This document shows, one piece after another, positions 24,282-64,000 of a DNA stretch of 64,000 bases. Within the stretch, counting starts at the first letter, position 1. Every line of letters begins with the position of its first letter. The position numbers and the translations under genes were made by a program. Origin of the DNA: Patescibacteria group bacterium. GTDB taxonomy: Bacteria > Patescibacteriota > Patescibacteriia > JBDRGY01. The notes under the pieces were generated by a model that saw only the letters and a list, made by a program, of their open reading frames with translations, did not search any database and had not been told where the DNA came from. The DNA lies in contig JBDRGY010000003.1 of assembly GCA_043817315.1 (NCBI GenBank), forward strand, positions 59,181-123,180, in the 5' to 3' direction.

Positions 24282-24755
24282 ATGCAATTTCTGGTTCCCC
24301 AATTTATAGACACGGAAGATAGAATATTCGGTCCGATTTCCACCAGGCAATTCGTGGAAATCCTGGCCGGTTTTGGCATGATGTATGTTGCCTACAAAAT
24401 GAGCACTTTTTGGCTCTTTGCTATGGAGGCAGTTTTTATTTTAGGCTTGGTAGTGGTTTTTGCCTTTGTCCGTATCAACGGGCAGGGCTTTCATTTTTTT
24501 GTCCTTAATCTAATCCAGACTTTACGTCGGCCCAAGATTAAAATTTGGTTAAAGGTAATTGCCGATAATAAAATATTTCCTTCCAAGCAGAAAGAAGTAA
24601 CAGTAGCGGCAACTGCGCCTAAACCGATGGTAACCTCCTCGCGACTGACAGAATTGTCTTTGGTAGTTGATACCGGGGGAGTGTATAAATCAGACGAAGA
24701 AAAAGCCAAGGAATTAATAAATTCTCAAAATGCCCAAAGAAAAAGAAAAAAGTAA
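24282..24755 (+). CDS. PrgI-family / VirB3-like small membrane protein (T4SS)
   Basis: 157 aa. N-terminus VPQFIDTEDRIFGPISTRQF matches the PrgI-family start (VPKDI..YEEKIfGLTlRQ). Two TM helices. Sits directly upstream of VirB4, as PrgI/VirB3 does. Confidence 0.55.
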   Translation: MQFLVPQFIDTEDRIFGPISTRQFVEILAGFGMMYVAYKMSTFWLFAMEAVFILGLVVVFAFVRINGQGFHFFVLNLIQTLRRPKIKIWLKVIADNKIFPSKQKEVTVAATAPKPMVTSSRLTELSLVVDTGGVYKSDEEKAKELINSQNAQRKRKK

Positions 24756-27436: not shown

Positions 27437-27447
27437 ATTTTAGCTAT

Positions 27448-28092: not shown

Positions 28093-28106
28093 TTAAAATT
28101 ACATTT

Positions 28107-28466
28107 ATGGTTGATTATTGGGAAGGCGCCGATCAAAATGATAAAAAGGAACTGGAGTTATTGGAGAAGGATATCAGAAAGAAGTTAGAAGATTTTGAAA
28201 GAATAATTCCACAAACTCAGAACTTCGAGGCTTGGCAGACAGAATATGATAAAATTGCCGAGCTGTTATTTAAAAGATTTGCTCTTAAAAATAAGATACT
28301 AAACAGCCAGGAGAATTGGTTCCGTAATGGTAAAGGTTCTATCCCTGATTGGCAATCAAAATTACCCACAGCAAGGGGTAATATTTCGAGGGAGCTTAAG
28401 GAAGATCTTGCAGTATCAGCTTTACTAATTGAGGATTTATCTAAGTCAGGAGGGAAAAATGGTTGA
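28107..28466 (+). CDS. Small hydrophilic hypothetical protein
   Basis: Likely start MVDYWEG at 28107. The track ORF start at 28062 overlaps the upstream gene. No motifs. Confidence 0.3.
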   Translation: MVDYWEGADQNDKKELELLEKDIRKKLEDFERIIPQTQNFEAWQTEYDKIAELLFKRFALKNKILNSQENWFRNGKGSIPDWQSKLPTARGNISRELKEDLAVSALLIEDLSKSGGKNG

Positions 28467-29568: not shown

Positions 29569-29585
29569 TATCTAATTATAAGTCT

Positions 29586-31121: not shown

Positions 31122-31130
31122 TAAAATAAT

Positions 31131-47345: not shown

Positions 47346-49121
47346 ATGAAGAGAGAGCGCAATCAAAAAGCAATATCGCCGAAAGCGATTGGCTTATTAA
47401 AAACAGCCTCCTTATCAGTTTTTGTGGCTGTTTTTTTGTTTATTGCCCTGGGCTTTGTCAGTGAAGTTTTTTCCAGTGATTGGACCCAACCGGACTTGGA
47501 AGATGTGGCTCCTAAAACCTCAGTTTCAGAACCACCTATCAATTTGGGGCCCAACCAGCAAGAGAAAAAGGGCGGATTAATCATCGGGGGATTACACACT
47601 GAATACTGGATTGATATTTCTTCGGGCAACCTGTCGGTTAATACCGGTAATGTATATATAGACAATGATTTGCGAATTCTTAATGCCCCCAACACATTAT
47701 TTTTAGCTGATTCCGGCCTTGATTCGGTTTTGATAAATTCAGAAGGCCTGGATGATGATAATGAATTACAAATTGAAGGCCGGGTCCATTTTGTTAACAA
47801 TAGCCCAGCCAGCGGTCAAGCTACAGTGACGGCAATAACTGGCTCTGACCAGCCAGCTTTTATTGGCAGGGCTTTGCAGGAATCTTTTGGCATACGCGCC
47901 AAAAATGCTGACGGGGCCGGAATCTCTGTTAAAGGAGTGGCTGGCAATGCAGCGGGCGGTCAGACCACTTTTGGAGTTATGGGATTAGCCGGTGATCGGC
48001 TTAACGGAACAGGCGACCCCTACTCTGGTTATTTGAGAGGTATGGTCAATTTTGGGGCAGCCCTGGGGAATCCTCCATTTTATACTAACTCGGATGTTTT
48101 GGTCACCAACTTAAACGTTGACTGGTTAGGCAGCAGCGATTCTTCCGACTTTATGACCGGATCCAGTGTGGCCTCTCAATATATTGAGATTCAGGACTTG
48201 ACTGAACCTCAGCTACAGGAGGGTGCTTTTAAGGTAGCGGGCCAGCAGAGGTTCGACAGTGGCCTGGAAGTCTCCAGTGATAACATTGCTGTCCCGGCTC
48301 TTTATCTGGCCCAACAAGGAGATGACAGCCGGGCTTTATATATCGAAGGTGGAAGCACTTCCCAAGTCGGAGAAACATATTATGGACTGTATAGTTTGGC
48401 AGGTGCAGGCGCTGGCACCAGCTATGCCGCCTATTTCACTGGGACAATACCGATTACTGAAATGGCAGACAGCCCCCTGGTAATCAATTCACGATCAGTG
48501 GCTGAAAATCTTGATGCAGATTTATTGGAAGATCAGCAAGCCTCTCAATTTTTGCAATTGGATGATGTGGCCGCTGGCATTACCCATCTTGACGAGGCTT
48601 TTGTTCGTCTACAGGGGTCGGCCCCCGGATTTTCCCAAACTGGCTACCTAAACCTAGATGGTTATTCGGAAATCGGAAGCGGATTAGTCAGCGCCAAGAT
48701 TACTGTCATCAATAGTACGGCAACGGGTAGCGGTCTCAGACTGGAAGGAGGCTCTCTCAATGACAATATGGCTCTTTATGCCGCCTCAGGACTGGCCAAT
48801 AGTTGGGCGGGCTATTTTGAAGGTGATGTAAAGGTAGACGGCCATGATCTATATATCGAGGACTATCTGGAATTAGATGCCAGTGGTGAGGCAGCCGGAA
48901 GCGGCACTATTACTGACGGGGAACTTAATACAGACATTACCAGCAGTTTCTATAATATGAGTAACAGTTACATTTTTCTGACAATTACAGATTATGGAAA
49001 TAATAATCCCTTTACCCTGAAGGTAACCAAGAATGCAGGAAGTTTCCGGGTATCTCTTTACCCCACCATGATGTCTGACGGGAACGTTACCTTTAATTAT
49101 TTTATAGTCAACAAAGAATAG
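47346..49121 (+). CDS. Secreted/anchored surface protein, member 1 of a 4-gene paralogous family (591 aa)
   Basis: N-terminal TM anchor then SDWTQPDLEDVAPK (W-x-x-P ... P motif shared with the three downstream genes). Shared motifs YAAYFTGTI, WAGYFEGDVKV, NLNVDWLGSSDSSDF. C-terminal module ends ...NVTFNYFIVNKE, as in the next two genes. Confidence 0.5.
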   Translation: MKRERNQKAISPKAIGLLKTASLSVFVAVFLFIALGFVSEVFSSDWTQPDLEDVAPKTSVSEPPINLGPNQQEKKGGLIIGGLHTEYWIDISSGNLSVNTGNVYIDNDLRILNAPNTLFLADSGLDSVLINSEGLDDDNELQIEGRVHFVNNSPASGQATVTAITGSDQPAFIGRALQESFGIRAKNADGAGISVKGVAGNAAGGQTTFGVMGLAGDRLNGTGDPYSGYLRGMVNFGAALGNPPFYTNSDVLVTNLNVDWLGSSDSSDFMTGSSVASQYIEIQDLTEPQLQEGAFKVAGQQRFDSGLEVSSDNIAVPALYLAQQGDDSRALYIEGGSTSQVGETYYGLYSLAGAGAGTSYAAYFTGTIPITEMADSPLVINSRSVAENLDADLLEDQQASQFLQLDDVAAGITHLDEAFVRLQGSAPGFSQTGYLNLDGYSEIGSGLVSAKITVINSTATGSGLRLEGGSLNDNMALYAASGLANSWAGYFEGDVKVDGHDLYIEDYLELDASGEAAGSGTITDGELNTDITSSFYNMSNSYIFLTITDYGNNNPFTLKVTKNAGSFRVSLYPTMMSDGNVTFNYFIVNKE

Positions 49122-52100
49122 ATGATGGTTTTTAGACGACAATTATTTCAGTCCGGCAAGAAACTAACTTTTCCAGTGAAAGTCTGTTTGTTTATTGCGT
49201 CATTACTATTAGTTGTAGGGGTGTTAAAAGTGGGCCAGGCGGCTTGGCAGGAACCAAGTGATGAACCAACAGGCGGAGGGATCTATTCGCCGCCGATTAC
49301 TACCTCTGCTACTGAACAGACCAAGGCTGGTGGTTTAGAGGTAGTCGGCAGTGATACCGATGGCTCTCTAGAAACCAAGGCGGGCCTGGAAGTGGCATCC
49401 GGCAATTTATTTATTGATAATGATCTGAATGTGGCCAACGGCGATTTAACAGTTGGCAGCGATGCCTTGTTTATAGATGCCAGTGCCAGAAGGGTGGCCA
49501 TCAATGATGCTACAGGTGAATCTAGCACCTCATTATGGGTAAGTGGCCGAGGCCATTTTGTCAGCAGCGGTCAGGCCTCAAGCGGTGGCATAGAGGACAG
49601 AGCTTTAGTGGCTGAGTATCTGGATTCAAATTATGATTCCAACACCAAAGAAGAAACGGTTTATATCGAAAACGATTCGGCTACCGACCCGGCGGTTTTG
49701 GGTACCAGCCTTTCGACCAGTGGGGGCGGGGGAGTGTTAGGCAAAGGAGGCGATTTGGATGCAGCCGGGGAGTCTTCCTACGCGATTTTAGCGGATTCAG
49801 GCAGCGGCCAAGGTGAAAATTACGCGGCTGAATTTAGCGACGTTGTCGCAGTTGATAACTTTCGTTTTTATTTGACTGATGACCTGGATATTGCCCGCTA
49901 CGATCATACCGCCACTTTATTGAATGACGGACGTGTCTTGATCACCGGCGGCTGGACCGGAGCCAATTTTACTGATCCTACAGAAACCGCCGAGATTTAC
50001 AATCCGGCCACTGGTCAATTTATCCCGACTACTACAGATATGACTTCGCCCCGGGCTAACCATTATGCCACTTTATTAGCTGATGGCCGGGTCTTAATAT
50101 CCGGCGGTTATGACGCTGACAATAAAAACAGCTTTATTAACACCGGAGAATATTTTGATCCGGATGATAACAGTTTTACGCCCCTGGGCTTTAACTTATC
50201 CAGTATGGCAGAGGGTACAGCTACCCTGTTATCTGATGGCCGCATTGCCTTTATTGGAGGGGCCTGGGGTACTGGTTCTGGTGATGTTTATAATGACGCC
50301 TATCTATGTGACTTAGTTAATGAAAGTTGCGTGATTGGTCCTGGTAGCGGCCTCAGCGATGGCAAAAAGAATCATACAAGCACTCTATATAAATCAGAGG
50401 CCGGTACTGATTATATCCTGGTAGCCGGAGGTGAATCTGGTTCTGTTCATGCCTCAGCCGATATTTATCGAGTCGGGAGCATAAATCAGACTACCTCTTT
50501 GGGTAATATGCCCGGGGGTCGGACGAGACACACCGCCACCCTCTTGGAAAATGGCAAAGTGCTGTTAGCTGGCGGCCGTGACTTAGCAGATAATCGGGGA
50601 AATAACGGTTACCTATTTGACCCGAGTGGTCCCAATATCACCGACATAGGAGATACGATGCAAAATGGACGGTACGCTCACGATGCGGTGACACTGGAAA
50701 GCGGTCTAGTTCTTATTAGTGGTGGTTCTGTTACAGGCAAAGGAATGGACGTTTATGATTATGTCAGTAACAGTTTTATAGATCCACTAGATGACGCTAA
50801 TGACCAAGTGTTGATAGCTCAGCTAACTACCCCCGAGTTCAACCCCCCGCAACTTAATGTAATCCGCCAAGGACACACCATGACTCTTTTACTCAACGGG
50901 CGTACTTTAATCGTCGGAGGTATAGACCCCAACACTACTCTTGTGTCTGCAACGGAGATTACCGAAGCAGCCCTGCAAGTCGGCTGGAGCAGCCAGATCA
51001 CTAATTTGAAGGCTGAATTTTTAGACGGTCACCGGGAAGATGAATTTGTGACTGATGATAATTTTGCCGCTCTTTTCGGTAACGTATTGGAAAATCAAAC
51101 GGCCGCAGACCAGAAATTAAACTTTTATCTTTCGGGACAGGGAATATTTGAAGGAGGGTTGGAATCTGATCTAAATGTAGATGACTTATACGCCATGACG
51201 GCGACCAATAATTCAGATTCAGGAGGTTACGGAGTTAAGGTACAAGCTGCTGACGCTGATTCTGATGAAACTACTTACGGGGTGTATGGCACTGCGGTAT
51301 CCGGCGCCAATACGGCCCGGGCTGCTTACTTCGAGGGCCGAGTTCAGATAGAAACGGATAAAATCAAAGAAGGCTCTTTTATCAACGCCGGTAATTTTGA
51401 CTACTCCATATCAGGACAGGCCGGAACAGCTTTGGCCAACGGTCAAGTATTTATGGCGGGGGGAGATAGGGGCAACGGCGCAGATAATGATTTTGTCAAC
51501 GATTCTTATGCCTACGATCCTTCGTCGGGAAGTATATCTTCTCAGCTGGCCATGCCAACTGCCAGAACCGGACATCAAGTTACTAATATCGGCAATGGTA
51601 AATGGTGGAATCCCTTTTATCAATATCGACGCCAAATTGAAATAAGTGCTGTAACCGATGATGTACCAGCCGGGCACGGTGTCTATATAGATACAGACGT
51701 GGAAGCTCTGGTCGCAGAAGGTAAGGTCAGATCCGATTATAAGGACTGGCGTGTCGTCTACTGGGACGGTGATGGTTGGGAAGATATTGGACGGGATTAT
51801 CTGGGACATCGGGTATCCAGCCAGACCTGGTTTACAGTACAAGAGGTAATTGCCTCCGGTTCCTCGGATGACAATTATTATATTTATTACGGGAATAGCG
51901 AGGAAACAACTGAATCAGGTACTTCCGGGGCTGTTGTTAGCTTCGATGATTATACCCTGGCCAGCTACGGTTCGCTGGACATAGATGTTGATCAATATGA
52001 AGTTTTGGATTCCGGCTATACTTTAAAACTGTGGGGTAATAATTGGAAAGTAGTAAATTATTTTTCCGATACCTCTGACAGTGAATTAAACTTAGATTTC

Positions 52101-53906
52101 AAAAGCGTTACCACCCAAGGAGAAAAGAACGGAATTGGCTTTGATAGTGACATGAGCAACGCGGTAGGGGACTGGGACAATTATTATCAGCTTTTCGGTA
52201 CTGATGCAGCTGACGGAAATATTGCCGCTCCCTACTATTCGGGTAGCGGTAATTATGAAAATTTTCAAGTCGACTTAAATTCAGGTGTTTTCAATTATCT
52301 TCATCTGGCAAATAATAATGATGGCAGCGGGGAGGCGGAAATTTATTATTCCAACGTTAAAGTATTTCCTGCGGTAACCAATGAACCTTCAGTCTCTGTC
52401 CAGTCTGAAGAAACTAGATTAGCCAATTATGCCCTGGTTACTGGCGGTTATGCCAGTTCAGACGGTGAGGCTATTGATTCCGCTGAGGAGTGGCGAACGG
52501 TATCTTGGCCCTCTTACAGTATGATTTTACCCAGAACTAACCATACTGCCACCTTGTTGCTTAACGGAGAGATTTTTGTAGCTGGTGGCTTCGATAACAG
52601 TCTTGGGGGCGATGTTGTAACCAACACCGAATTATTTAAATCCGGTTCTTTCTCCGCCGGACCAGCAATGCCTTCGGGCCAGGCCAGGGGCAATCATACA
52701 GCTACCCTATTAAAAGACGGACGGGTCTTTATAGTAGGGGGCAGTTCAAGCCCAACTTCAGGATATCTATCAAAAGGTTTGATTTACAATTCCCAAACCG
52801 AATTGATAACAGAGACCAATTCATCTTTTAATTTGATGGTAGACCATTCGACCATCCTGTTGCCTAGCGGCCAAATTTTGGTAGCTGGAGGTTGTTATGA
52901 GGGCGATGCTTGGGCTGATGCTGTGCTTTATGATCCGGACACTGATGCCGCTACAGCCCTGCCTGATTTAAATACAGCTCGTTGTGGACACTCTGCCTCT
53001 TTATTGCCGGGCGGACGGGTACTTCTAGCGGGCGGACGGGATGGAAGCAATTACTTGTCAAGTTACGAAATTTACGATCCCCATATTGGCGATGATGGCG
53101 GTTTTGTTCAGTACGATTCGCCGTTTGCTCTGGACGAGAACAGGGCGGATGCTTTATCCGTAGGACTAGATACCGGCCAGGTAGTCTTGTCAGGCGGAGT
53201 CAATGAATTCGACAAATTAAATACAGTAAAAGTGTTTGACCCATACCAGCCCCCGTTCAAAACGAAGACAGGTGCTCAGAGAACGGCCAATTTAAATGCT
53301 TCTTATCTGGACGGCTATGCGGCCAGCGCTATCGCTGACAGTTCAGCCGATTTAACTGAATATTTAACCGTTCAGGAAGACCTAACCAGTCCGCAGACCG
53401 GCACTGAGGGAATTGTTATTTCTGGCAGCCTATACGCTGATCAAGAAATTGAGGTGGAGCAATCAGCAGGTAGTGGCGTGGCTGTTTTGAGCCAAGCTGG
53501 TCTTGGCAGTTATGGTTTATACGCCCAAGGAGAAGCAGTAGCCGGCTCCAAAGCAATCTGGGCTACCAATGCCACTGCTTGGGCCGGATATTTTGAACGA
53601 ATCTCCGGCTATACTACCAAGACCCAAATTACAGGAAACCTATCTCTGGCCAACGGAGTAACTCACCAATCAGGCGGAGCAGCCAGTCGATCCTATATTG
53701 CAGCCGGTATCAGCTCCCGTTCAGTTACCAATCCCCGAGTTTCTCCATCCAGCATAGTGCTTGTTACCATGACTGACAGCGGAGGGGCCTCACAGTATTT
53801 CTCTTTAGAGGTTATCAATAAAGGAAGCAGCTCCTTCACGGTTAGGATGGATCCGGCTGTATCACACGGTTCACCGGTTTGGTTTGATTATTTGATTATC
53901 AATTAA
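49122..53906 (+). CDS. Giant (1594 aa) surface protein with Kelch/galactose-oxidase-like beta-propeller repeats (family member 2)
   Basis: More than 12 repeats of R-x-x-H-T/Y-A-T-L-L-x-D/N-G-R/K-V-L-I/L-x-GG (HTATLLNDGRVLITGGW, HYATLLADGRVLISGGY, HTATLLENGKVLLAGGR ...). N-terminal anchor and AWQEPSDEPTGGGIYSPP. C-terminal ...PVWFDYLIIN. Start adjoins the previous stop with no gap. Confidence 0.6.
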   Translation: MMVFRRQLFQSGKKLTFPVKVCLFIASLLLVVGVLKVGQAAWQEPSDEPTGGGIYSPPITTSATEQTKAGGLEVVGSDTDGSLETKAGLEVASGNLFIDNDLNVANGDLTVGSDALFIDASARRVAINDATGESSTSLWVSGRGHFVSSGQASSGGIEDRALVAEYLDSNYDSNTKEETVYIENDSATDPAVLGTSLSTSGGGGVLGKGGDLDAAGESSYAILADSGSGQGENYAAEFSDVVAVDNFRFYLTDDLDIARYDHTATLLNDGRVLITGGWTGANFTDPTETAEIYNPATGQFIPTTTDMTSPRANHYATLLADGRVLISGGYDADNKNSFINTGEYFDPDDNSFTPLGFNLSSMAEGTATLLSDGRIAFIGGAWGTGSGDVYNDAYLCDLVNESCVIGPGSGLSDGKKNHTSTLYKSEAGTDYILVAGGESGSVHASADIYRVGSINQTTSLGNMPGGRTRHTATLLENGKVLLAGGRDLADNRGNNGYLFDPSGPNITDIGDTMQNGRYAHDAVTLESGLVLISGGSVTGKGMDVYDYVSNSFIDPLDDANDQVLIAQLTTPEFNPPQLNVIRQGHTMTLLLNGRTLIVGGIDPNTTLVSATEITEAALQVGWSSQITNLKAEFLDGHREDEFVTDDNFAALFGNVLENQTAADQKLNFYLSGQGIFEGGLESDLNVDDLYAMTATNNSDSGGYGVKVQAADADSDETTYGVYGTAVSGANTARAAYFEGRVQIETDKIKEGSFINAGNFDYSISGQAGTALANGQVFMAGGDRGNGADNDFVNDSYAYDPSSGSISSQLAMPTARTGHQVTNIGNGKWWNPFYQYRRQIEISAVTDDVPAGHGVYIDTDVEALVAEGKVRSDYKDWRVVYWDGDGWEDIGRDYLGHRVSSQTWFTVQEVIASGSSDDNYYIYYGNSEETTESGTSGAVVSFDDYTLASYGSLDIDVDQYEVLDSGYTLKLWGNNWKVVNYFSDTSDSELNLDFKSVTTQGEKNGIGFDSDMSNAVGDWDNYYQLFGTDAADGNIAAPYYSGSGNYENFQVDLNSGVFNYLHLANNNDGSGEAEIYYSNVKVFPAVTNEPSVSVQSEETRLANYALVTGGYASSDGEAIDSAEEWRTVSWPSYSMILPRTNHTATLLLNGEIFVAGGFDNSLGGDVVTNTELFKSGSFSAGPAMPSGQARGNHTATLLKDGRVFIVGGSSSPTSGYLSKGLIYNSQTELITETNSSFNLMVDHSTILLPSGQILVAGGCYEGDAWADAVLYDPDTDAATALPDLNTARCGHSASLLPGGRVLLAGGRDGSNYLSSYEIYDPHIGDDGGFVQYDSPFALDENRADALSVGLDTGQVVLSGGVNEFDKLNTVKVFDPYQPPFKTKTGAQRTANLNASYLDGYAASAIADSSADLTEYLTVQEDLTSPQTGTEGIVISGSLYADQEIEVEQSAGSGVAVLSQAGLGSYGLYAQGEAVAGSKAIWATNATAWAGYFERISGYTTKTQITGNLSLANGVTHQSGGAASRSYIAAGISSRSVTNPRVSPSSIVLVTMTDSGGASQYFSLEVINKGSSSFTVRMDPAVSHGSPVWFDYLIIN

Positions 53907-53914
53907 GTATAGTA

Positions 53915-56900
53915 ATGACCAGGTTGATCAAAACTGAAAAAATTGCCACTTGTAGTCTGTTGATAGCTTTTTGCAGTCTGGCCGTGGTTCTTTATGTTGG
54001 GGCCCAGTCGGATTCCCGATTTTGGTCCGATCCCCATCCTGGTCAGCCGACAGCCTCTCCGGAAGAAGGAGCACCCCTGACCACCTCAGCTGCCGATCAA
54101 ACCAAGTCCGGTCATTTAACAGTGGGAGAAGAAGTTACGGGCACCGGGTTAATTTCCAATGACAGGGTAGATATCGGCCCCCTACTTGATTGCGACCAGA
54201 CCACAGAAACCTGCTACGGTGATATTAACCTGGGGAGCGGCGGTAGCGTCGATTTAGCCGAGGACTTGGAAGTTGATGCTAATCAAGAGAAATTATTGAG
54301 AGTTTCCGGTTCTGGTAATAAAGTGGGAATTTTAACTGATCCGACCACTTACGAGTTGGACGTGGCTGGCGAAACATACATAAAGAGCCCCAACAACAGC
54401 GATAAAAATGCCCTCAAGGTCAACACCGGTGATGGCACAGGTCTCTCGGGAGAAATTACTTTTAATTCTGATAGCTACTTTGCTGTCCAGGGAGAGGGAG
54501 GAGACAGAAATGGCGGTGGAATTTATGCCGAAGGAGGATCGGCAGATTCTGGCTCCAATACTTATGCTATCAAAGCAGAGCCTGGGTCTGGTTGCGCTGG
54601 TAACTGCTGGGCTGCCTATTTCCGGGGTCGTCTCAAGATAGAAACCGGTTTTCGTGAAGGAGATTCTGATAATTATCAAAGAATTTATCATACCGCCACT
54701 AAACTAAATGACGGCAAAGTATTATTTATTGGCGGCTTGGACGGTGAAGATTTTGTGCCCAATAGGGGTGTTTACTATTATGTGAGAAGAATTACCTACT
54801 TTGATCCTATCAGTCAACAGTTTGGTGATGGGCCATATTTACAAGTGCCTCGTTCTCATCATACTGCCAATCTATTGGGTAATGACGTACTGGTAGCCGG
54901 CGGTTACAAGTGGGAGAATACCGAGCCCAGTTTTGCCAACATGGAATCTACTGATTCGGTAGAAATGTGTAATACTGGTACTTGTCTTCAGATTGATACC
55001 CTGGATCAAGCCAGGGCCAATCATACAGCAACAACCGCCAATAATGAAGTGGTAATAATCGGCGGTGACAGCAAGGTGGGAGACCAGTATCTGGCCCTAA
55101 ACACCATTGAGCATTGTAATGCTACTACCTGTATTTCACCTGGCGTCAATTTAATTACCGCCCGCACCGAACACACCGCTACTCTATTAGACAATGGATT
55201 GATCCTAATTGCCGGTGGCAAGAGCTCGGAAAACAATTATCTGAATAGTACTGAACTTTACGATCCGCTTAACCATACTATTGCTCAAGGCCCTTCTTTT
55301 ACCGATGCCCGGGCAGATCATACGGCTACTAAGCTAGATGATGGTAGAGTTTTTATAGCCGGCGGCTATCGGGAAACGGGTAATAGTATTTTTGGCACTC
55401 ATTATAATAGCAGTGTTATCTATAGTCCTGGCGGAGGAGTTGGTTCTTTTAATGACGGACCCACCATGCTGCTAGCTCGATCTCAACATACAGCTACCTT
55501 GTTGTCCGGGGGTCAAGTGATGATATTGGGAGGAGAGAATGATGCTAAAGCCTCCACTAAAGACACTAACGAAATTTTCAATCCCAATGATAACACCATT
55601 TCCGAAGGACCGGCCCTATTGGGGTACCGCATGGGGCATACCGCTACCTTATTGGATAGTGGAGAAGTGCTGGTTGGTGGCGGCCGCAGTGATTTCTTTG
55701 ATGGATCCACTGTTTGGCAGAAAACAGAGTATTTTTCCACTTTATCTGATGATTTTTCTTTGTTAAGCAGTGAGACTACCACGCATTCTTACGCCGCTGA
55801 CCAGAGAGCCACCTTATTATCTGACGGCACTGTATTATTAACCGGGGGCCGGCGCTTTCCCTACCGCTGGATACGGGACTTACCAAGTAATAACGAATAT
55901 ACTGCCTCTGTTTTTGATCCGCCCACTGACACTTTTAGAAACCTGGATGCAGCTGACAATGATTTGGATAAACTGGGATATCATACCGCTACTGCTGCCA
56001 CTTTCGCCAGTAAATGGTGGTCCTCCGGCGAAGGTTACCCCGCCAGAGAGAGACTGATGGTCACCAATCGAGATATTGAGGATCTGCCACCCGGTTATGT
56101 GGCTACTCTGGCCCTACCCAGAGCTGAATGGGACGACAAGTTATTGGATGACGAATACGATGATTTAAGAATTGTATATTACAACCAAAATGACGGTTTC
56201 TGGCTTGATCTCAATCGCCATGTTGTGGCCACGGATGATACTTTATATGTCTATTTCAGATTGATTGATTTAATAGGTATTGGAGACACAATGAGTGATA
56301 CCAGATATTTCTTGTATTACGGTAATGCCGAGGCTGATACCGCTCCCGCCAATAAATCAGCCGTTTATGATATCTGGGCTGATTTTGAAGAAGGGATCGA
56401 CCCCGATGATTGGGCTACGGATATTTACTCGGGACCCCAAGGCACCCTGGGCATAGATAGTATAGACAGCGATAATTCTTCTCTAACCCTGAGCCACGGA
56501 GATCCGGCCGGTGTGGAGGATGTTGATAAGAAGACCCATACTACCACCATTACAGTTAAAGTGGTTGACCAGGTGGACAGCCCGGTTGGCGGGGCCATTG
56601 TTACTATTACCTGTAGTAGGGGAGGAAGTGATTGTACTGATGACGTGTTCCTGTCCGGCAATAGCGATGACAGTAATGGCAGTGGTAATGCCGAGTTTAC
56701 TTTCACCGCCCCCTGGGCTGATACAGATGAAATTTCTTACGGCTATACTATTGTTGGTGATTACAGTTTCACGGCCACGGCCACTCATCCTTCCTATCAA
56801 GGTGAGCCCTCAATTGGTCCTAGCACTCTAATCACAACAAATCAACCAACAATTGATAATGTTAATATTCAGGGTCCCATATTCGCTGCAGATTGTGTTT

Positions 56901-59900
56901 ATCCAATTTGCGAACTGACTGACTACGTCTTAGAATCGCTAATTGATATTCATTCTGAGGGGGTTCCGGTCAGAATGGCTAAAGTAAAAAATATTATATT
57001 TAAAGGTAAAACATGTTCACAGTCACTTGATCTTGATGCCAACCCAGATATAAATGAAATTGTTTCTGATGAGGATACAATTTTTATTTATCCCTCTGAG
57101 CCAGCGCTACCTGCCTGTGATAATCTCTATTACCCAATTAAGAAATTGAATTACAATGATGGGGAAAATGGCCCCACGGGCCAAGATACGACTTGGATTG
57201 CGAATATGTGTCCCCCTGAGTGTGATTGGGGTGGTCTGGATATCAAGAGGCCCCTTGCCCAAGCGGACTGTTCAGTCAGCGCAGAAGACCAAAAACCAAA
57301 CAGCAGTTTCTGGGATCAATTCATTTCTTCCCTATTTACTATTGAAGAAGTAGTAGCCTCTGAACTGGAATCAGCCTGGCCAGATGATAGAAAAGTGGCT
57401 GAAGGCCAGGTGTTGGGCATTGTTGAGGGAGAAACTCCCAGTATCTTTGAAGAAAACGGCCAGGTGAGAATTGACGGACAAAGAGGCAGCTATGCTCATA
57501 TTGAGATTGGTACAGGCCGGGTGACCACACCCGATACCTTAGTGCTGGAAGGGAAGATAAAAACCGTCGAGGATGTTGATGAGGCTTATCAGGAAGACGA
57601 ACTGGCCATGGGCCTGGCCCTGTACTGGGATCAGAATAATTGGGCCCAGATAAGGCAGCGTACTCTCGGCGGCAATCAATGGGTGATTACCCAAATGGTT
57701 GACGGAACTCCTACCGATACCACCAATGTGGCCTGGGGCTTTAATTTAAATCAATACTATTGTGTCAATGTAAATTTAGACAGGGCCGACATCGTGTATT
57801 CAATAGCTCCCACTATTGGTGATTCAGAATCCTGTGACCAGATAGAAGAATCTTGGACCGAATTGGCCACCATAGCGCGACCGCTGGCTGAATTCAACCC
57901 CAAGCCGTCCAAAATCATTGTGGGCAAAGGAACAGGAACGGCTGATCCTAATCTGGATAATGTGGGTACTCCGACCAATGAGGTAAATACATATTACGCT
58001 GATGATATTTTAGTAAGAGGAACAGCTGATCCAGAAGCCGGGGTGACTATGGCCGGTGACTTACCCGACGAAGCGGTATTGATTACCGGAGGTCATGGAG
58101 GAACTTATAACGGAGATGAGGCCTTGTCAGTTGAAGTATCAGACAAAACTTTCCTCTATTATCCAGACTTTACTGGTTCAGGCAATGACAGCTTGGGAGA
58201 GAGGGGCACTACCTTGCCTGGAGGGCCGCGTACCCATCATACAGCAACCCTGTTATCTGACGGAACAATATATATCGCCGGTGGCTACTATTCTTTGAAT
58301 ACAGCCACAGATGCCCTGCAATCTACTTTAATTTACAATCCAGACGATGATACTTTTAGCAACGGTCCTGATTTGCCGACCACAGGCAGAGCTAATCATA
58401 CAGCTGTCGCCTTGTCCGGTAATCAGGTTTTGATAATCGGGGGAAATAGTAAAATGGAAGATGATTCATTGAATAGTGCAGTGCTGATTGATTTTGATGC
58501 CCCGGTAAGTGTTAGTGAGATAGGGAATATTGGAGGGGCTCGCAGTTATCACACAGCTACTCTTTTGCCCGATGACAGTATTTTAATAGCTGGCGGAATA
58601 AATTTAGACAAAAATCAAGTGATGGGTGGAAATGTTTTAAATAGCACAGTGGTATACGATAGTGGGGATTTTAATGACGGACCCGATCTTTCTCGTCCTC
58701 GCTTCCATCACACAGCTACTTTGACCAATGATGGGAGTGAAGTGTTATTGATCGGTGGTGAGACTTTGCGACATTACCAAATCGGTGAGATAGACCGTTA
58801 TCTGGTGGCCAGTAATACAGTCAGTGATAGCCATCCGGCCCTGTATCGTCACCGAACGCATCATCAGGCTGTTTTGGCAGATTCCATTGAAGGAACCGAG
58901 GACCAATACAATGTTTATGTCTTTGGCGGTCTCTACGGTTGGCAAGGAATTCAAGATGAAACATTTCTATTCCAGGAAGCGGCCATGGAAGTACAAAGCA
59001 GCGAGATGGTAGTCAATCTCAACGCCGATTTACTGGATTCATACGACAGTGATGATTTCGTGTTAATCAGTCAAGTGGGAGAGGAATATGTGGTAGGTCA
59101 GAATCCAGCCAGTTGGCAGCCACAGAGTGGTAGTCTGCGCGTTGATCAATTAAGTCAAATAAGTTACAACTCAGATGACAGCTTGGGAGGGATAGAGGCG
59201 GTCAGTTCAGCAAGCACCGTGCCGGCTGTGACCGTAACCCATACTGGTGCCGGTGATGCTAGTAAAGCCCTAGAGGTTAAGGCAGAACCGGGAGGGGTTG
59301 GCTATACCACTTACGGTATTTATGCCCAGGCTGGTAGTGGAGTCGGAGATCATTTCGCTGCTTATTTCGGTGGCCAGGTTTTCTTAGACAGTACCGGACC
59401 TCTGACTATTCAATCCAATACTCAAGTGGCCAATCTTAATGTCGATAAGCTGGACGGTTTTCATATTGACGATTTCATCTTAACTAAAGATTTGGCTCAA
59501 TACGCCAAATTTGACCAATCAGGTTTAGAGCAGACCGGCAACATTCATGTTTCCAACATCGCCAAATTTACGGAAGATACCATTTCTCCCACCCTTAATA
59601 TAACCAACAAGCCCTCGGCCTATTCTTACGCCTCAGAAGGAGTGGAAACGACAGGTGGCCTTTATGCCCTCAGGGCTATTGGCGGCACTGCTGCAGGCAC
59701 CAACTACGCAGGGTATTTCGAGGGTGATGTTAAAGTGACTGAAGATTTATACGTAACCGGCGGCAAGCTAATTTTTGAAGGATCGCCGGCAGCCGGCAGC
59801 AGCTCCATAGCAGCGGGCAATAATTGTTCTGATACCATTTCTCCAGAAGGATTTGATGCAGAGGCACACGTGATGATCACGGTAACCGATTTTGGAACTG

Positions 59901-60019
59901 ATTCCAATAATTATAACGTCAGAGTCAATCAATTGGCTTCTGATTTTGAGGTCTGTACTTTTGGGGACAGTGGCAACCCGGCTGTTAACTTTGATTATCT
60001 GATCGTTAAATCACTATAA
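53915..60019 (+). CDS. Giant (2034 aa) surface protein with two Kelch-like propeller regions (family member 3)
   Basis: N-terminal anchor and FWSDPHPGQPTASP. Kelch-type HTATxLxDGxVxIAGG repeats at aa ~250-700 and ~1440-1700. Motifs WAAYFRGRLKIE, ANLNVDKLDGFHIDDF, YAGYFEGDVKV. C-terminal ...AVNFDYLIVKSL. Confidence 0.6.
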   Translation: MTRLIKTEKIATCSLLIAFCSLAVVLYVGAQSDSRFWSDPHPGQPTASPEEGAPLTTSAADQTKSGHLTVGEEVTGTGLISNDRVDIGPLLDCDQTTETCYGDINLGSGGSVDLAEDLEVDANQEKLLRVSGSGNKVGILTDPTTYELDVAGETYIKSPNNSDKNALKVNTGDGTGLSGEITFNSDSYFAVQGEGGDRNGGGIYAEGGSADSGSNTYAIKAEPGSGCAGNCWAAYFRGRLKIETGFREGDSDNYQRIYHTATKLNDGKVLFIGGLDGEDFVPNRGVYYYVRRITYFDPISQQFGDGPYLQVPRSHHTANLLGNDVLVAGGYKWENTEPSFANMESTDSVEMCNTGTCLQIDTLDQARANHTATTANNEVVIIGGDSKVGDQYLALNTIEHCNATTCISPGVNLITARTEHTATLLDNGLILIAGGKSSENNYLNSTELYDPLNHTIAQGPSFTDARADHTATKLDDGRVFIAGGYRETGNSIFGTHYNSSVIYSPGGGVGSFNDGPTMLLARSQHTATLLSGGQVMILGGENDAKASTKDTNEIFNPNDNTISEGPALLGYRMGHTATLLDSGEVLVGGGRSDFFDGSTVWQKTEYFSTLSDDFSLLSSETTTHSYAADQRATLLSDGTVLLTGGRRFPYRWIRDLPSNNEYTASVFDPPTDTFRNLDAADNDLDKLGYHTATAATFASKWWSSGEGYPARERLMVTNRDIEDLPPGYVATLALPRAEWDDKLLDDEYDDLRIVYYNQNDGFWLDLNRHVVATDDTLYVYFRLIDLIGIGDTMSDTRYFLYYGNAEADTAPANKSAVYDIWADFEEGIDPDDWATDIYSGPQGTLGIDSIDSDNSSLTLSHGDPAGVEDVDKKTHTTTITVKVVDQVDSPVGGAIVTITCSRGGSDCTDDVFLSGNSDDSNGSGNAEFTFTAPWADTDEISYGYTIVGDYSFTATATHPSYQGEPSIGPSTLITTNQPTIDNVNIQGPIFAADCVYPICELTDYVLESLIDIHSEGVPVRMAKVKNIIFKGKTCSQSLDLDANPDINEIVSDEDTIFIYPSEPALPACDNLYYPIKKLNYNDGENGPTGQDTTWIANMCPPECDWGGLDIKRPLAQADCSVSAEDQKPNSSFWDQFISSLFTIEEVVASELESAWPDDRKVAEGQVLGIVEGETPSIFEENGQVRIDGQRGSYAHIEIGTGRVTTPDTLVLEGKIKTVEDVDEAYQEDELAMGLALYWDQNNWAQIRQRTLGGNQWVITQMVDGTPTDTTNVAWGFNLNQYYCVNVNLDRADIVYSIAPTIGDSESCDQIEESWTELATIARPLAEFNPKPSKIIVGKGTGTADPNLDNVGTPTNEVNTYYADDILVRGTADPEAGVTMAGDLPDEAVLITGGHGGTYNGDEALSVEVSDKTFLYYPDFTGSGNDSLGERGTTLPGGPRTHHTATLLSDGTIYIAGGYYSLNTATDALQSTLIYNPDDDTFSNGPDLPTTGRANHTAVALSGNQVLIIGGNSKMEDDSLNSAVLIDFDAPVSVSEIGNIGGARSYHTATLLPDDSILIAGGINLDKNQVMGGNVLNSTVVYDSGDFNDGPDLSRPRFHHTATLTNDGSEVLLIGGETLRHYQIGEIDRYLVASNTVSDSHPALYRHRTHHQAVLADSIEGTEDQYNVYVFGGLYGWQGIQDETFLFQEAAMEVQSSEMVVNLNADLLDSYDSDDFVLISQVGEEYVVGQNPASWQPQSGSLRVDQLSQISYNSDDSLGGIEAVSSASTVPAVTVTHTGAGDASKALEVKAEPGGVGYTTYGIYAQAGSGVGDHFAAYFGGQVFLDSTGPLTIQSNTQVANLNVDKLDGFHIDDFILTKDLAQYAKFDQSGLEQTGNIHVSNIAKFTEDTISPTLNITNKPSAYSYASEGVETTGGLYALRAIGGTAAGTNYAGYFEGDVKVTEDLYVTGGKLIFEGSPAAGSSSIAAGNNCSDTISPEGFDAEAHVMITVTDFGTDSNNYNVRVNQLASDFEVCTFGDSGNPAVNFDYLIVKSL

Positions 60020-60041
60020 TTATTATTTATTTTTCAAAACT

Positions 60042-61325
60042 ATGAAACAAGCCAAACAAGAATTATTAAGAGCCACTTTAATCAGTGTGGCAGTGCTCAG
60101 CATAGCCGGGTTTATACTAGGTTTGGGGTCTTTCGTGGCCGAGGCCTGGACTCCGCCCGCCGGCTCTCCTCCGACAGGCGGTGACATTGCTGCTCCCCTG
60201 AATGTCAGCAACAGCGCTCAGCTGAAGATCGGCCCAGTTACTGTTGATCCAACAGATACCCAGGGGGTAGTAACCCAAAATTCCCTGTCAATCTACGGCA
60301 ACAATGCCAACTCCAGCCTATATGTGGAACAGAGTGGAGGTGGTTGGGCTACTATTTTGTCAGGCGATGTTCACGTCGGTCCTTTTGCTGGCGGCGGCCA
60401 ACTTTGTCTCAATTCTGGTTACACTAAAGGAGTGGCCGTGCCAGAATGTATTACCAGTTGGGCCGAAGTAGGTGGCGGTGGTAGCACTCTGTGGCAGGAA
60501 ACCGGAAACTTTTTACATCCTTTAAACACTCCAAAATCAGTAGCGGCCGATGCTCATATTATTTCAGGCTATAGCGCAGGTGGTGACATCAGAGTCTGGC
60601 GCGATGGAGCCTGTAATGACGGTGAATGCCGAGCCCTGGTAAATCCCAGGGGAATACTTAGCAATAACTACAATGATTATCTGATAATCAACTATGATGA
60701 TGCGGGCCTTGGTCTGGGTGATTATGATAAGGGTGTATTGATCCCTGGCAAGCTTAATGTTGGGGGTATTCAAGGGGTGCCAGCCACTGATATGACCACT
60801 GCGTCTTTCTTTAGCACCTCTCAATCATCTATCATCAATCCGGATTCTGCCATCTACGCCCAGCAGAATGACCCGGTAGAGGGCTGGGCTGGCTTTTTCT
60901 CAGGCGATGTAGCCATTAGCGGTGGTCTCTACATGACTGGTAGCGTTTATGCAGTCGAAGGAGATCTGAATGCCTCGCGCGGTGGCGGTGGTAAGCTAGG
61001 TAAACTGTTTGCCGGTAATTTTAATGGCAATGTCTATGTAGGTAATGAAACTCAAGACGCCGAACTATGTCTCAATGGCACAGATGATGGCGCCAATTGT
61101 ATTCAGAGCTTTATACCGGATGCCTTTCAATGCAACAGGGGTACTGGCAGCTGTGGAGTGGCTGCTCAGTCGTCCTGCAACGATAAATGCCAAAACGCCA
61201 CTGACCCCGGTCCTGGTTTCTGTGTTTCCGCCTGGGTGGAAAATAAGGGATTACAAAATTTCAATTGTGATGATACGGCGACGCCAGTTGGCACCATTTA
61301 TTGCAATTGCTTACGCTTTGATTAA
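60042..61325 (+). CDS. Surface protein family member 4 (427 aa) with Cys-rich C-terminal region
   Basis: N-terminal anchor and AWTPPAGSPPTGG (same W-x-P-P motif). WAGFFSGDVAISGGLYMTG shared motif. Last ~110 aa contain 12 Cys. Confidence 0.5.
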   Translation: MKQAKQELLRATLISVAVLSIAGFILGLGSFVAEAWTPPAGSPPTGGDIAAPLNVSNSAQLKIGPVTVDPTDTQGVVTQNSLSIYGNNANSSLYVEQSGGGWATILSGDVHVGPFAGGGQLCLNSGYTKGVAVPECITSWAEVGGGGSTLWQETGNFLHPLNTPKSVAADAHIISGYSAGGDIRVWRDGACNDGECRALVNPRGILSNNYNDYLIINYDDAGLGLGDYDKGVLIPGKLNVGGIQGVPATDMTTASFFSTSQSSIINPDSAIYAQQNDPVEGWAGFFSGDVAISGGLYMTGSVYAVEGDLNASRGGGGKLGKLFAGNFNGNVYVGNETQDAELCLNGTDDGANCIQSFIPDAFQCNRGTGSCGVAAQSSCNDKCQNATDPGPGFCVSAWVENKGLQNFNCDDTATPVGTIYCNCLRFD

Positions 61326-61350: not shown

Positions 61351-63039
61351 ATGATGAGAAAACCAATCAATCCGAAAAAGACACTATGGGTAATTATTAT
61401 CCTGCTGGTCTTGGGAATCGCCTTTCAGCTGGTCAATTACCAATTGGGCAAAGTTAAAGTTGTCCTATACGGGACAAGCACGGACTCTGTCACTTTACAA
61501 GTAGAGAATATTTTGTCTGATTTGCAGACAAAATTTGGCTCTCGCCTCAATGTAGAAATTCATTTAGCGGGCCGGTTGTTAGAAGACGGTACTATCCAAA
61601 GTTATCAAACTACTTCAGCAGAAGCGGCTGCTTATGACATCGAAGAGAATATCCGCCAAGCGGTGATAAAAAATCTTTACCCCAATCAATATGCCGATTA
61701 TCTACAGGTGCGTAATACGGACGTGACCAACACCAATTGGCAGTATTTCGCTGAATTTGCCAAGATTAATGCCGACAAGATTTCGGAACAAATAGATTTA
61801 GAAGGAGAAGCTTTATTCAGAGAAGAAATTGCCAAGTTTGAAGAGGTCCGCCAAGACTTACCGATTAACGCCAATACTTTGCCGTTACTCTATATTAATG
61901 ATCAATTGTATAAAGGTTCAGTTGACCATTTTTCCCTGTCAGCTGCTGTAGTCAAACCGATTTTAAGAGGTTGGAAGAGTAAATTGTCAGAAAGTGGTAA
62001 AACCTCTTGGTTTGGAGGAGCTATCACTTTCAGATCCTTTTCAAAATTCCAGCATAACGGAGTTTCTGAATGCTATAACAACTTAGATTGCGACGATAAA
62101 AATGATTACGTGGGTACTTGCCGAGATGTCGGTACTGATATTGCCAGATGTGTGTACACCGAACCGGCTGAAGTACAGTTAACTGTCTTAAATGATGAAG
62201 ACTGTGCTACCTGTGATACTGAATTTACCATAGCTAACTTGCAAGCTGATTTTAAAGGATTATCGGCAAACGAAATTGATGTTTCTTCCAAAGAAGGGGA
62301 GCAGTTAAAGGAAGATTTGGGAGTAAGGGCTTTGCCAGTCTATCTGTTTGGTGAAGAGGTAGAGCAGGCCAGTAATTTTGACCTTTATGCCCAGGTTGGC
62401 TATCTGGGGCAGGTGACCGAATCAGGTGACTACAAGTACACCTTGGTCCAGTCTGGAATTCCTGGGGTGCTCTTGGAAAGAGAACTGGCAGAAAACCAGT
62501 TAGATATCTTTGTAATGAGTCAATGTCCTTATTCGGTCGCTCTGGAAAATTCTCTGATTGCCTTGGCCCAGGATATCAATTTTGACCTCAACGTTCACTA
62601 CGTCCTACAAGGCGAAACGGATGCCGAAGGCAATGTTAGCTTGAAGATGGCCTCGCTGGGCGGGGAAGCGGAATACAATGAAGATATCAGGCAGTTGGTC
62701 ATCCAGAAGTATTATGCAGATAAATTCCTTGATTACCTGGAAGAGCGTAATAAAGATGTGACCAGTGAAGACTGGCAGTCGGTAGCCATGGCAGTTGGAA
62801 TCGATGCAGCTGATGTAGCGGCCAAAGCGACGGCAGAGGGTGAAGACCTGCTTAAGGCTGATGCCCAAACCGCCTTGGGACTGGGAATAAATTCGGCACC
62901 GGCTTATCTGTGGCAGAACCGCTATTTCGGCTTTGGGGTAACCAATCTAATTCAATTTGATAAGTTTAGTGATTTAGAAATTAGAGCGGAGGACATGGGT
63001 TATTGTATCAACCCTCAAGATGGGACTAGTCAAGAATAA
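61351..63039 (+). CDS. Membrane-anchored tandem thioredoxin/DsbA-fold protein (first domain lacks Cys, second carries a CPYS monothiol site) with a Cys-rich linker
   Basis: N-terminal TM. Two ~200-aa halves of similar pattern. The first opens with the strand VKVVLYGTSTDS and the second with DIFVMSQCPYSVALE. Both end in a [ND]S/TAPAYL/TLPLLYIND then Y/F-[KFG] motif, consistent with the thioredoxin-fold beta-alpha-beta and the cis-Pro region. Linker is CYNNLDCDDKNDYVGTCRDVGTDIARCVY ... DEDCATCD. Confidence 0.45.
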   Translation: MMRKPINPKKTLWVIIILLVLGIAFQLVNYQLGKVKVVLYGTSTDSVTLQVENILSDLQTKFGSRLNVEIHLAGRLLEDGTIQSYQTTSAEAAAYDIEENIRQAVIKNLYPNQYADYLQVRNTDVTNTNWQYFAEFAKINADKISEQIDLEGEALFREEIAKFEEVRQDLPINANTLPLLYINDQLYKGSVDHFSLSAAVVKPILRGWKSKLSESGKTSWFGGAITFRSFSKFQHNGVSECYNNLDCDDKNDYVGTCRDVGTDIARCVYTEPAEVQLTVLNDEDCATCDTEFTIANLQADFKGLSANEIDVSSKEGEQLKEDLGVRALPVYLFGEEVEQASNFDLYAQVGYLGQVTESGDYKYTLVQSGIPGVLLERELAENQLDIFVMSQCPYSVALENSLIALAQDINFDLNVHYVLQGETDAEGNVSLKMASLGGEAEYNEDIRQLVIQKYYADKFLDYLEERNKDVTSEDWQSVAMAVGIDAADVAAKATAEGEDLLKADAQTALGLGINSAPAYLWQNRYFGFGVTNLIQFDKFSDLEIRAEDMGYCINPQDGTSQE

Positions 63040-64000
63040 AAAACTTAATCTAGTAATTTCCGGATCTATTGTAGTCATCCTGTTGTTTTGCTTTGCCAGT
63101 TTTCAGCCAGGTTCTGTGCAGTCGGCTATGGACGACGACATTACCGGCTTTGCCTGGTTTGGCGCAAACTGTATCCCCGGAGAGGATTGTAATACCACAA
63201 ATACCGGGGCTATCGGCTGGATCAGCATGAATTGTTATCAGCCAGGCGTTTTTGACGAATGTGGCGGACTTTTCGGCTACGGTGTTGATATCGGACCACC
63301 TAGTGGTGGCATCAGAGACATCACTGGGTATGCCTGGATCGGGACCGGGGACCCCACTAAAGAGTCAGAAGCTCATCCTATTGGTTGGATCAATTTTGAC
63401 GAATACCCTATCGTTGATTGGGATTTGGCTGATTATACAGATGCCCATGTTGATGCTGCCGGTAACATGTACGGTTGGGCCCGGATCCATAGTATCGCGG
63501 AAGATCTGTCGGCTGATAATGGCTGGATACGTTTTCGCTGTGAGGCGGCTGAGTGTGGAGCCAATAGCTATGGAGTTACTATAGATCTGGATACCGGTGA
63601 TTTTCTAGACGGTTCTTTTGCCTGGGCCGGTCATCATGATGAAGGGGGGTTAGGCTGGATTGACTTTAGTGGAGTAGCTATTACCGGTGGTAAGCCGGTT
63701 TTAGTGGTTCAGGAAACTGATTTGGGCCCCACTGCTCCGGCAGAAGCTGATTCTTACGTCCGTCTGCAGTGTGCGGCAACTTTTGTGCCATTAGGTTCAA
63801 ACAATTTCACTGTGTTTGAATACAAAAAAGCTTCAGATTCTAGCTGGTCGTCAATGATTACCGGTACGGAGGGTTATAGTGGAACACCTATCAATTATAA
63901 TTGGTGGGATTGGAGTTCTTCAGGCATTGAAGTTGCTGGTGACACTGAAGATTATGAAATGCGCTGCCGGGTCTGCGCCCAGGAAGCTAATTGTACCGAG
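63020..64000 (+). CDS. Secreted protein with GW[IV]xF repeats, partial (runs off the 3' end of the window); absent from the supplied ORF track
   Basis: ATG at 63020 overlaps the upstream gene by 20 nt. Frame is open to 64000. Signal peptide (LVISGSIVVILLFCFASF). Repeated TGAIGWISMNC, HPIGWINFDEY, DNGWIRFRCEA, GGLGWIDFSGV units and scattered Cys. Confidence 0.45.
   Translation, partial: MGLVKNKKLNLVISGSIVVILLFCFASFQPGSVQSAMDDDITGFAWFGANCIPGEDCNTTNTGAIGWISMNCYQPGVFDECGGLFGYGVDIGPPSGGIRDITGYAWIGTGDPTKESEAHPIGWINFDEYPIVDWDLADYTDAHVDAAGNMYGWARIHSIAEDLSADNGWIRFRCEAAECGANSYGVTIDLDTGDFLDGSFAWAGHHDEGGLGWIDFSGVAITGGKPVLVVQETDLGPTAPAEADSYVRLQCAATFVPLGSNNFTVFEYKKASDSSWSSMITGTEGYSGTPINYNWWDWSSSGIEVAGDTEDYEMRCRVCAQEANCTE

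Follow-up and report, generated by a model that had tools for sequence, protein, structure and literature searches.

We analyzed a 64,000-nucleotide stretch of contig JBDRGY010000003.1 (positions 59,181 to 123,180, forward strand, assembly GCA_043817315.1), hereafter called the window. It comes from a Patescibacteria metagenome assembly, a group belonging to the candidate phyla radiation (CPR). An open reading frame on its plus strand (61351-63039, start ATG, stop TAA) encodes a protein of 562 amino acids (aa); the same sequence is deposited at NCBI as "hypothetical protein ABIB97_02690" of Patescibacteria group bacterium. Our results indicate that this product is very probably an exported thiol-disulfide oxidoreductase built of three thioredoxin-fold modules. 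It is most likely a PDI-like enzyme acting outside the cytoplasm, whose chemistry and substrates we infer. The reading that we favor as a whole, to which we give a probability of about 0.55, is that of a membrane-held enzyme with a split active site formed by Cys392 of the last domain and Cys552 of the C-terminal tail, and with the products of the flanking genes as clients. Extracytoplasmic thioredoxin-fold disulfide catalysts are well known as a class; three aspects appear to be undescribed, namely the split site made of a monothiol and a tail cysteine, the plan of three modules, and the distribution in DPANN and CPR.

The AlphaFold2 model used here was built on an alignment of 82 sequences and reached a predicted local distance difference test score (pLDDT) of 93.9 and a predicted template modelling score of 0.86; it superseded a poor model built on 5 sequences (pLDDT 59). 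The order of strands and helices fits three thioredoxin folds, and both outer domains carry a helical insertion between the second beta-strand and the cis-Pro strand. The protein is laid out as follows.

61372..61446, plus strand, aa 8-32: N-terminal signal anchor, possibly a cleavable signal peptide (hydropathy, model helix)
61447..61971, plus strand, aa 33-207: N-terminal GILT/DsbA-like thioredoxin-fold domain (internal repeat, pLDDT >90)
61993..62160, plus strand: four-Cys beta-hairpin module with C241, C247, C257 and C267 (C-x5-C-x9-C-x9-C)
62167..62460, plus strand, aa 273-370: middle thioredoxin/PDO-like domain (profile match to 1j08/1a8l, model topology)
62203-62214, plus strand: middle CxxC, C285-A-T-C288, aligned with CQYC of 1j08 and 1a8l
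62335-62337, plus strand: P329, cis-Pro candidate of the middle domain, aligned with the cis-Pro of 1j08 and 1a8l
62488..62955, plus strand, aa 380-535: C-terminal GILT/DsbA-like domain (Pfam DSBA, model, Foldseek, family motif)
62524-62535, plus strand: C392-P-Y-S395, at the N-terminus of helix 1
62899-62901, plus strand: P517, cis-Pro candidate of the C-terminal domain, preceding strand 518-521
62956..63036, plus strand, aa 536-562: C-terminal tail with C552 at 63004-63006 (conservation, co-occurrence with C392)

A first-pass annotation, made from the letters of the window without database searches, had described a protein with an N-terminal membrane anchor and two DsbA/thioredoxin-like halves, the first free of cysteine and the second carrying C-P-Y-S. 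This outline proved sound. The halves are homologous (aa 31-157 against aa 378-502, 30% identity, E=1e-13). A Foldseek search against PDB gave mouse GILT (6nwx) as the best match (target-normalised template modelling score 0.66, root-mean-square deviation 3.3 Å over 179 columns), followed by structures of DsbA, MdbA, TcpG, FrnE, GST kappa and HCCA isomerase, with a probability of 1.0 throughout. In the C-terminal domain, strand 383-388 leads to C392 at the start of helix 393-406, the arrangement of thioredoxin folds on which the earlier description depended; the helical insertion, P517 and strand 518-521 follow. The N-terminal domain runs in the same order through strand 35-41, helix 46-65, a helical insertion, P178 and strand 179-182. 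Both proline equivalents are at least 90% conserved and stand ahead of a strand, their cis state being itself only a candidate, and an equivalent of P517 is found in 225 of 245 family domains.

A full-length sequence search of PDB returned no significant match, and neither did NCBIfam. Pfam DSBA matched the C-terminal half only (29.7 bits against a gathering score of 25.6), and the GILT hidden Markov model (HMM; PF03227) stayed below threshold at 13.3 bits against a gathering score of 22.4 (E=0.11). A profile of the C-terminal domain matched BdbD, VSR1 and DsbA in PDB and did not recover GILT by sequence. The protein belongs to the DsbA-like/GILT-like fold superfamily but lacks the CxxC by which DsbA and GILT are defined. 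Where DsbA has a CxxC at helix 1, the N-terminal domain reads D-S-V-T and the C-terminal domain C-P-Y-S; in place of the CxxC and the C-Q-H-G-x-x-E-C signature of GILT, it has CPYS and S-L-G-G-E-A-E. GST kappa carries S-P-Y-S where the 562-aa protein has C-P-Y-S. GST kappa and HCCA isomerase (3rpp, 1yzx and 3fz5 among the Foldseek matches) use a serine with glutathione and are not disulfide catalysts, and the likeness to them is at fold level only (E ~5e-4). Their catalytic serine occupies the first CxxC position, as reported for GST kappa in a thioredoxin-fold atlas (PMC2757866); position 392 is a cysteine here.

At the N-terminus, a hydrophobic segment (about aa 12-30) comes after the basic residues R3, K4, K9 and K10, and in the model a helix (aa 8-32) passes straight into the first domain. 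From hydropathy and model we read this region as a signal anchor, which would place the domains outside the cell; the alternative is a cleavable signal peptide. The first domain contains no cysteine. Its D45-S-V-T aligns with C392-P-Y-S, so that D45 takes the position of the nucleophile, V201 stands at a cysteine position of the family, and the cis-Pro equivalent P178 is retained. Among 82 relatives, 63 have a cysteine at position 45; a redox pairing of this Cys45 with another cysteine was considered and dropped, as no co-occurrence was found. The Cys-free module of the window protein would most likely serve as a non-catalytic client-binding domain, as the non-catalytic domains of PDI do.

The protein has eight cysteines, all invariant in its five closest relatives, including C552, which the first-pass annotation had overlooked. 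Across the 82 relatives, the presence of C392 and that of the terminal cysteine go together: 57 sequences have both, 19 have neither, and the two mixed classes hold 5 and 1 (phi 0.82). The same comparison on 138 representatives, scoring the active-site cysteine of the last domain against a cysteine in the final 12 residues, gave 95/11/2/30 (p=6e-19). Sequences with S, N or A in place of C392 lack the entire tail as well. Family tails are rich in Gly, Ser, Thr and Pro and terminate in G-x-C. On this sequence evidence we take the coupling of C392 and C552 to be real, though few events underlie it.

The active-site motif was then counted over the family domains.

CPYG: 104 domains
CPFG: 41 domains
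CPYS: 11 domains
CPYA: 10 domains
any CxxC: about 5 of roughly 240 domains

These counts make CPYS one form of a monothiol motif, C-P-[Y/F]-[G/S/A], that is characteristic of the family; the idea of a decayed CxxC was ruled out by the prevailing C-P-[Y/F]-G. The earlier description had treated CPYS as an active site, and its cysteine does lie at the canonical nucleophile position. The further argument of that description, that a CxxS site points to isomerase or reductase chemistry, is too simple, because Cys392 has a co-occurring partner in Cys552.

In the mechanism that we propose, Cys392 would attack disulfides or thiols of client proteins, and C552 would either resolve the resulting mixed disulfide or cap the idle site. 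A C392-C552 disulfide, and with it a split active site as such, is possible, at odds that we put somewhat short of even. There is a parallel in FrnE, in which a cysteine of the C-terminal tail communicates with the active site; FrnE of Deinococcus (5cnw, 5cp1), found among the Foldseek matches, differs from the 562-aa protein in keeping a CxxC and in being cytoplasmic. The pairing of a CxxS with a tail cysteine could also be read in another way. ERp44 has a CRFS site, a-b-b' domains and a regulatory C-tail, and a retention or assembly chaperone of that kind would use Cys392 to hold unpaired cysteines of clients at the membrane, with the tail cysteine capping the idle site. The CxxS motif, the three thioredoxin-like domains, the co-occurring tail cysteine, the membrane anchoring and the operon with large surface proteins would all suit such a role. 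The canonical CxxC domain described below nevertheless suggests real exchange catalysis, the likeness to ERp44 is one of analogy only, and unpaired cysteines in the clients are an assumption; we regard this reading as distinctly unlikely.

The region between the two halves had been taken for a CxxxxC-rich linker in a purely monothiol enzyme. Neither description fits. A disordered Cys-rich linker was ruled out by the model and by a profile match to PDO: the region consists of a four-Cys hairpin module and a third thioredoxin-fold domain, with a canonical CxxC and P329. The hairpin module, within aa 215-270, is modelled as two beta-hairpins (including 254-258/266-270) and has no match in Pfam. 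Its four cysteines are invariant in the close relatives, are found in 58 of the 82 relatives and co-occur with phi values of 0.91-1.00. They presumably form two structural disulfides, and these values are compatible with more than one pairing among the four.

The middle domain has a beta-alpha-beta-alpha-beta topology in the model: strand 275-281, CATC, helix 291-300, strand 304-310, helix 314-323, P329 and strand 330-333. Its profile matched the N-terminal unit of archaeal PDO (1j08, 1a8l) with E values of about 1e-7 (best 7e-8), and plant h-type thioredoxins came next. An alignment of 41 sequences shows no variation at C288 or P329 and at least 90% conservation at C285. The CxxC occurs in 53 of the 82 relatives and is thus rarer than the monothiol sites. 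By fold and motif, this module could provide a second, conventional site of dithiol/disulfide exchange or relay redox equivalents. Archaeal PDO is cytoplasmic and has two such units, whereas here one unit lies between GILT-like domains, behind the four-Cys hairpin. The mixture of catalytic and Cys-free modules in a tandem of thioredoxin folds recalls the PDI family, as an architectural analogy only: PDI is made of plain thioredoxin a and b domains, whereas the outer domains of our protein are DsbA/GILT-like and carry helical insertions.

To place the protein in a family, an exhaustive profile search was needed, as word-indexed searches with the protein or with the 82-sequence alignment returned the same 5 proteins. 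The profile search retrieved 2,267 representative clusters at E<=1e-3 and 276 at E<=1e-30, and 905 proteins matched one typical family member at E<=1e-20. The plan that dominates among the 153 best representatives consists of a DsbA-like domain, a middle domain and a second DsbA-like domain. Hosts are mainly DPANN (Nanoarchaeota, Woesearchaeota, Altiarchaeota, Aenigmarchaeota and Nanohaloarchaea), together with CPR, Candidatus Gygaella obscura, a metagenome-assembled genome (MAG) labelled Omnitrophota and an Elusimicrobia MAG; in one Spirochaetales MAG, the family member is fused to a redoxin. The names given to these proteins are all automated: "DsbA family protein", "thioredoxin domain-containing protein", "HCCA isomerase", "protein-disulfide isomerase" or "hypothetical". 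Our literature search found no paper describing the three-module family. The thioredoxin-fold atlas mentions in passing some bacterial proteins with two or three DSBA domains (PMC2757866), and a survey of 2008 described GILT as being without known prokaryotic homologues (PMC2398784).

Pfam matches among the 82 relatives comprise DSBA (62), Thioredoxin_4 (57), GILT (48, best 6e-26) and VSR_TRX (30). The GILT HMM spans the N-terminal part of each DsbA-like domain. Co-occurring pairs of cysteine columns were found at 105-147, 120-133, 201-235, 450-492, 465-478, 540-540i and 285-288, in addition to the four-Cys cluster; the window protein is a pared-down member whose cysteines are limited to C392, C552, the CxxC and the four-Cys cluster. 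The helical insertion of both DsbA-like domains has the family consensus S-L-H-G-x-x-E-x-x-E-x-x-R-Q-L-C, which recalls the GILT signature C-Q-H-G-x-x-E-C-x-x-N-x-x-x-x-C and is degenerate in the C-terminal domain of the window protein (S-L-G-G-E-A-E...R-Q-L-V). GILT thus provides both the best solved structure for the DsbA-like domains and an HMM match in relatives. It is a single-domain, soluble protein of eukaryotic lysosomes with a CxxC site, whereas the present family is prokaryotic and membrane-anchored, with C-P-[Y/F]-[G/S/A] and a distal tail cysteine, and has the domain duplicated around a CxxC domain.

One family member lies in a different setting. On a JGI contig, the 709-aa member P0021 is encoded between genes for a copper P-type ATPase with HMA and for a DsbD_TM-cupredoxin on one side and a gene for a thioredoxin-domain protein on the other, an arrangement that hints at a link of some members to copper stress or to reduction through a CcdA/DsbD-type pathway. 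Two further explanations draw on this locus. In the first, the protein would be a GILT-like surface reductase acting on foreign proteins, whether of a host or prey envelope or scavenged, and so aiding attachment or proteolysis. GILT as the best structural match, the GILT HMM scores in relatives, the concentration of the family in DPANN, CPR and Omnitrophota, and the DsbD_TM/CcdA-type electron conduit beside P0021 are in its favor. The direction of redox chemistry is, however, not fixed by similarity of fold, the conduit is a single case, the window contains no supply of reductant, and the operon partners are surface proteins of the cell itself; this makes a reductase of foreign proteins very unlikely. 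In the second, the protein would have no redox role and would bind a metal such as copper, or be a structural surface protein with all its cysteines structural. The copper ATPase and HMA-domain genes next to P0021, the conserved S-L-H-G-x-x-E-x-x-E motif and several cysteine pairs that are clearly structural could be explained in this way. The histidine of that motif is, however, a glycine in the window protein, C392 sits at the exact catalytic position of a thioredoxin fold with its cis-Pro candidate kept, and the CxxC aligns with known active sites. We therefore consider a non-redox role highly improbable.

We next consider the gene environment, which is the basis for the proposed clients. 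Four co-directional genes, for proteins of 591, 1594 (Kelch), 2034 (Kelch) and 427 aa, precede the 562-aa gene and make it the fifth of the run, with intergenic gaps of 0-25 nucleotides (nt).

47346..60019, plus strand: three secreted proteins of 591, 1594 and 2034 aa, with gaps of 0-22 nt; same layout in related contig L002
60042..61325, plus strand: secreted 427-aa upstream neighbour (14 Cys), whose homolog in L002 is likewise the upstream neighbour
63020..64000, plus strand: downstream neighbour, whose start overlaps the stop of the 562-aa gene by 20 nt and which exits the window

As the first-pass annotation had pointed out, the gene lies behind four extracytoplasmic proteins; each has an N-terminal hydrophobic segment. 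The downstream neighbour also has one, with 11 Cys in its visible 326-327 aa, and Cys counts per neighbour range from 8 to 40. In three related contigs (L002, L001 and L008; 63%, 39% and 37% identity), the adjacent genes are homologous and their order is kept; the downstream neighbour has its homologs in all three. A contig profile search with a narrow alignment gave 3 loci, two of them already known. Within this CPR lineage, the 562-aa gene is probably co-transcribed with genes of Cys-containing surface proteins. Downstream of the block, L001 carries genes for PilM, a PilB-type ATPase, PilT, PilC and a pilin, and L002 carries PilM. ComF-like and ClpC-type genes lie upstream in the window in the same order as in L001, and from this shared order we infer a type IV pilus cluster just past base 64000. 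The enzyme may then introduce or reshuffle disulfides in the flanking surface proteins as they emerge from the membrane, with the Kelch-repeat giants, the 427-aa protein with its 14 Cys, the large downstream protein and probably pilus components as clients. We propose the flanking proteins as clients tentatively, with the balance tipping slightly against it.

A pilus connection would also suit a conventional enzyme. The DsbA/MdbA/BdbD/TcpG group (PF01323) shares with our protein the thioredoxin fold with a helical insertion, the cis-Pro loop and the extracytoplasmic location, and TcpG (4dvc, among the Foldseek matches) and MdbA (PMC6744442) are precedents for the folding of pilus subunits. Meheust et al. 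described a different, CxxC-bearing family of MdbA-like oxidoreductases that is enriched in CPR, often lies beside VKOR and was proposed to fold pilins (PMC6744442). The 562-aa protein could accordingly be mainly a DsbA/MdbA-like oxidase, in which the middle CxxC oxidises clients, a VKOR/DsbB-type partner elsewhere re-oxidises it, and the GILT-like domains bind clients. The canonical CxxC with its cis-Pro candidate in a thioredoxin fold and the pilus genes downstream in two relatives agree with this. Against it, the CxxC is missing in about one third of the family and has an unconserved dipeptide, in contrast to the C-P-[Y/F]-G sites and the terminal cysteine, which persist. The protein also differs from the group in having no CxxC in either DsbA-like domain and in its three domains, and neither VKOR nor DsbB was found in the window or at any family locus examined. 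An oxidase of this type is in our view unlikely, and we retain the PDI-like enzyme with a split site as the favored reading.

Several observations weigh against that reading too. A rough parsimony count reduces the coupling of C392 with the tail to about 3-4 independent co-losses, with 6 discordant sequences, and the confidence of the model drops from residue 551 onward, to below 50 for residues 556-562. The middle CxxC is absent in 29 of the 82 relatives, and its dipeptide is highly variable, so this site may be auxiliary or structural. The 64-kb window was found to encode neither VKOR nor DsbB nor CcdA/DsbD. The connection to pili is one of synteny only, since the window ends ahead of any pilus cluster. 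Finally, no conserved neighbours were seen at the DPANN and Omnitrophota loci examined, outside the CPR subfamily.

This last point also bears on the suggestion that the protein is dedicated to a Cys-rich secretome. A packed block of secreted Cys-containing proteins does surround the gene; with no conserved neighbours in the wider, mostly DPANN, family, a dedicated role can hold at most for the CPR subfamily. The suggestion had extended to a 3162-aa protein and to Cys-rich "pilin fusions" in the same window, and this part found no support: no specific link of the 562-aa gene to either, 30-55 kb away, was found. The 3162-aa protein (6529-16017) is indeed Cys-rich, with 203 Cys (6.4%); it has an N-terminal signal and one CBM_4_9 domain and is otherwise unannotated. 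The fusions are two Cys-rich proteins (24 and 14 Cys) within a conjugation-type, type IV secretion system (T4SS)-like cluster at 24282-32246, which also encodes a PrgI-family protein and a VirB4/TraG-type P-loop ATPase. Since they carry the T4SS pilin domain PF18895 and adjoin these PrgI-like and VirB4/TraG-like genes, they are not type IV pilus pilins.

Other features of the neighbourhood were recorded. The four secreted proteins upstream of the 562-aa gene (47346-61325) have a common N-terminal module right behind the hydrophobic segment, of the form W-x-[E/P/D]-P ... P-[L/I]-[N/T]-[V/T]-[G/S] ... Q-x-K-x-G (e.g., AWTPPAGSPPTGGDIAAPLNVSNSAQLKIG); in the first of them (47346-49121) it is present only in a looser form, DWTQPD...PPINLGPNQQEKKGG. 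The module is also present in syntenic proteins of L001 (7971-9992), L002 (2845-9976) and L008 (6558-8000), and may be a shared signal for sorting, processing or assembly. The downstream neighbours (63020-64000 in the window, 11746-14148 in L001, 11722-16008 in L002 and 9679-10935 in L008) are homologous and share an N-terminal motif G-W-x-W ... N-x-G-W-x-S-x-N; in L002 this neighbour is a Kelch protein of 1428 aa and contains 40 Cys. Contig JAIWBS010000102.1 (L003, the same as L002) is labelled "Pirellulales bacterium" and has the CPR-type order of Kelch giants, family gene (the 63%-identical orthologue) and PilM; it is probably a mis-binned CPR contig. On the Woesearchaeota contig JAZDKJ010000002.1 (L012, 1-8313), a gene for a surface protein of more than 3164 aa ends about 3 kb upstream of a family member, which is directly followed by a gene for a 206-aa single-domain DsbA/Thioredoxin_4 protein.

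To attach to their hosts, CPR and DPANN rely on pili and on surface proteins that are elaborate and often rich in Cys. The family documents abundant prokaryotic relatives of GILT, formerly held to be restricted to eukaryotes, and unites in one membrane-anchored chain a monothiol GILT/DsbA-like site, a co-occurring terminal cysteine and an optional CxxC domain. A bolder interpretation, which we think rather unlikely, would see here a new class of extracytoplasmic disulfide catalyst, in which prokaryotic GILT-like split-site domains are arranged PDI-style around the optional CxxC domain, with the nucleophile in C-P-[Y/F]-G and the resolving cysteine at the end of a flexible C-terminal arm. Such a class would form the main oxidative-folding machinery of the ultra-small, host-dependent DPANN, CPR and Omnitrophota, and eukaryotic GILT and the thioredoxin-like domain of plant VSR could have their prokaryotic root in it. 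The findings are no categorical surprise. If the split site is true, it would be a new solution among known disulfide catalysts and would provide a target that can be expressed for work on how uncultivated episymbionts make their surface proteins. The family is large, as yet untouched and experimentally tractable, and it bears on how ultra-small symbionts build their surface.

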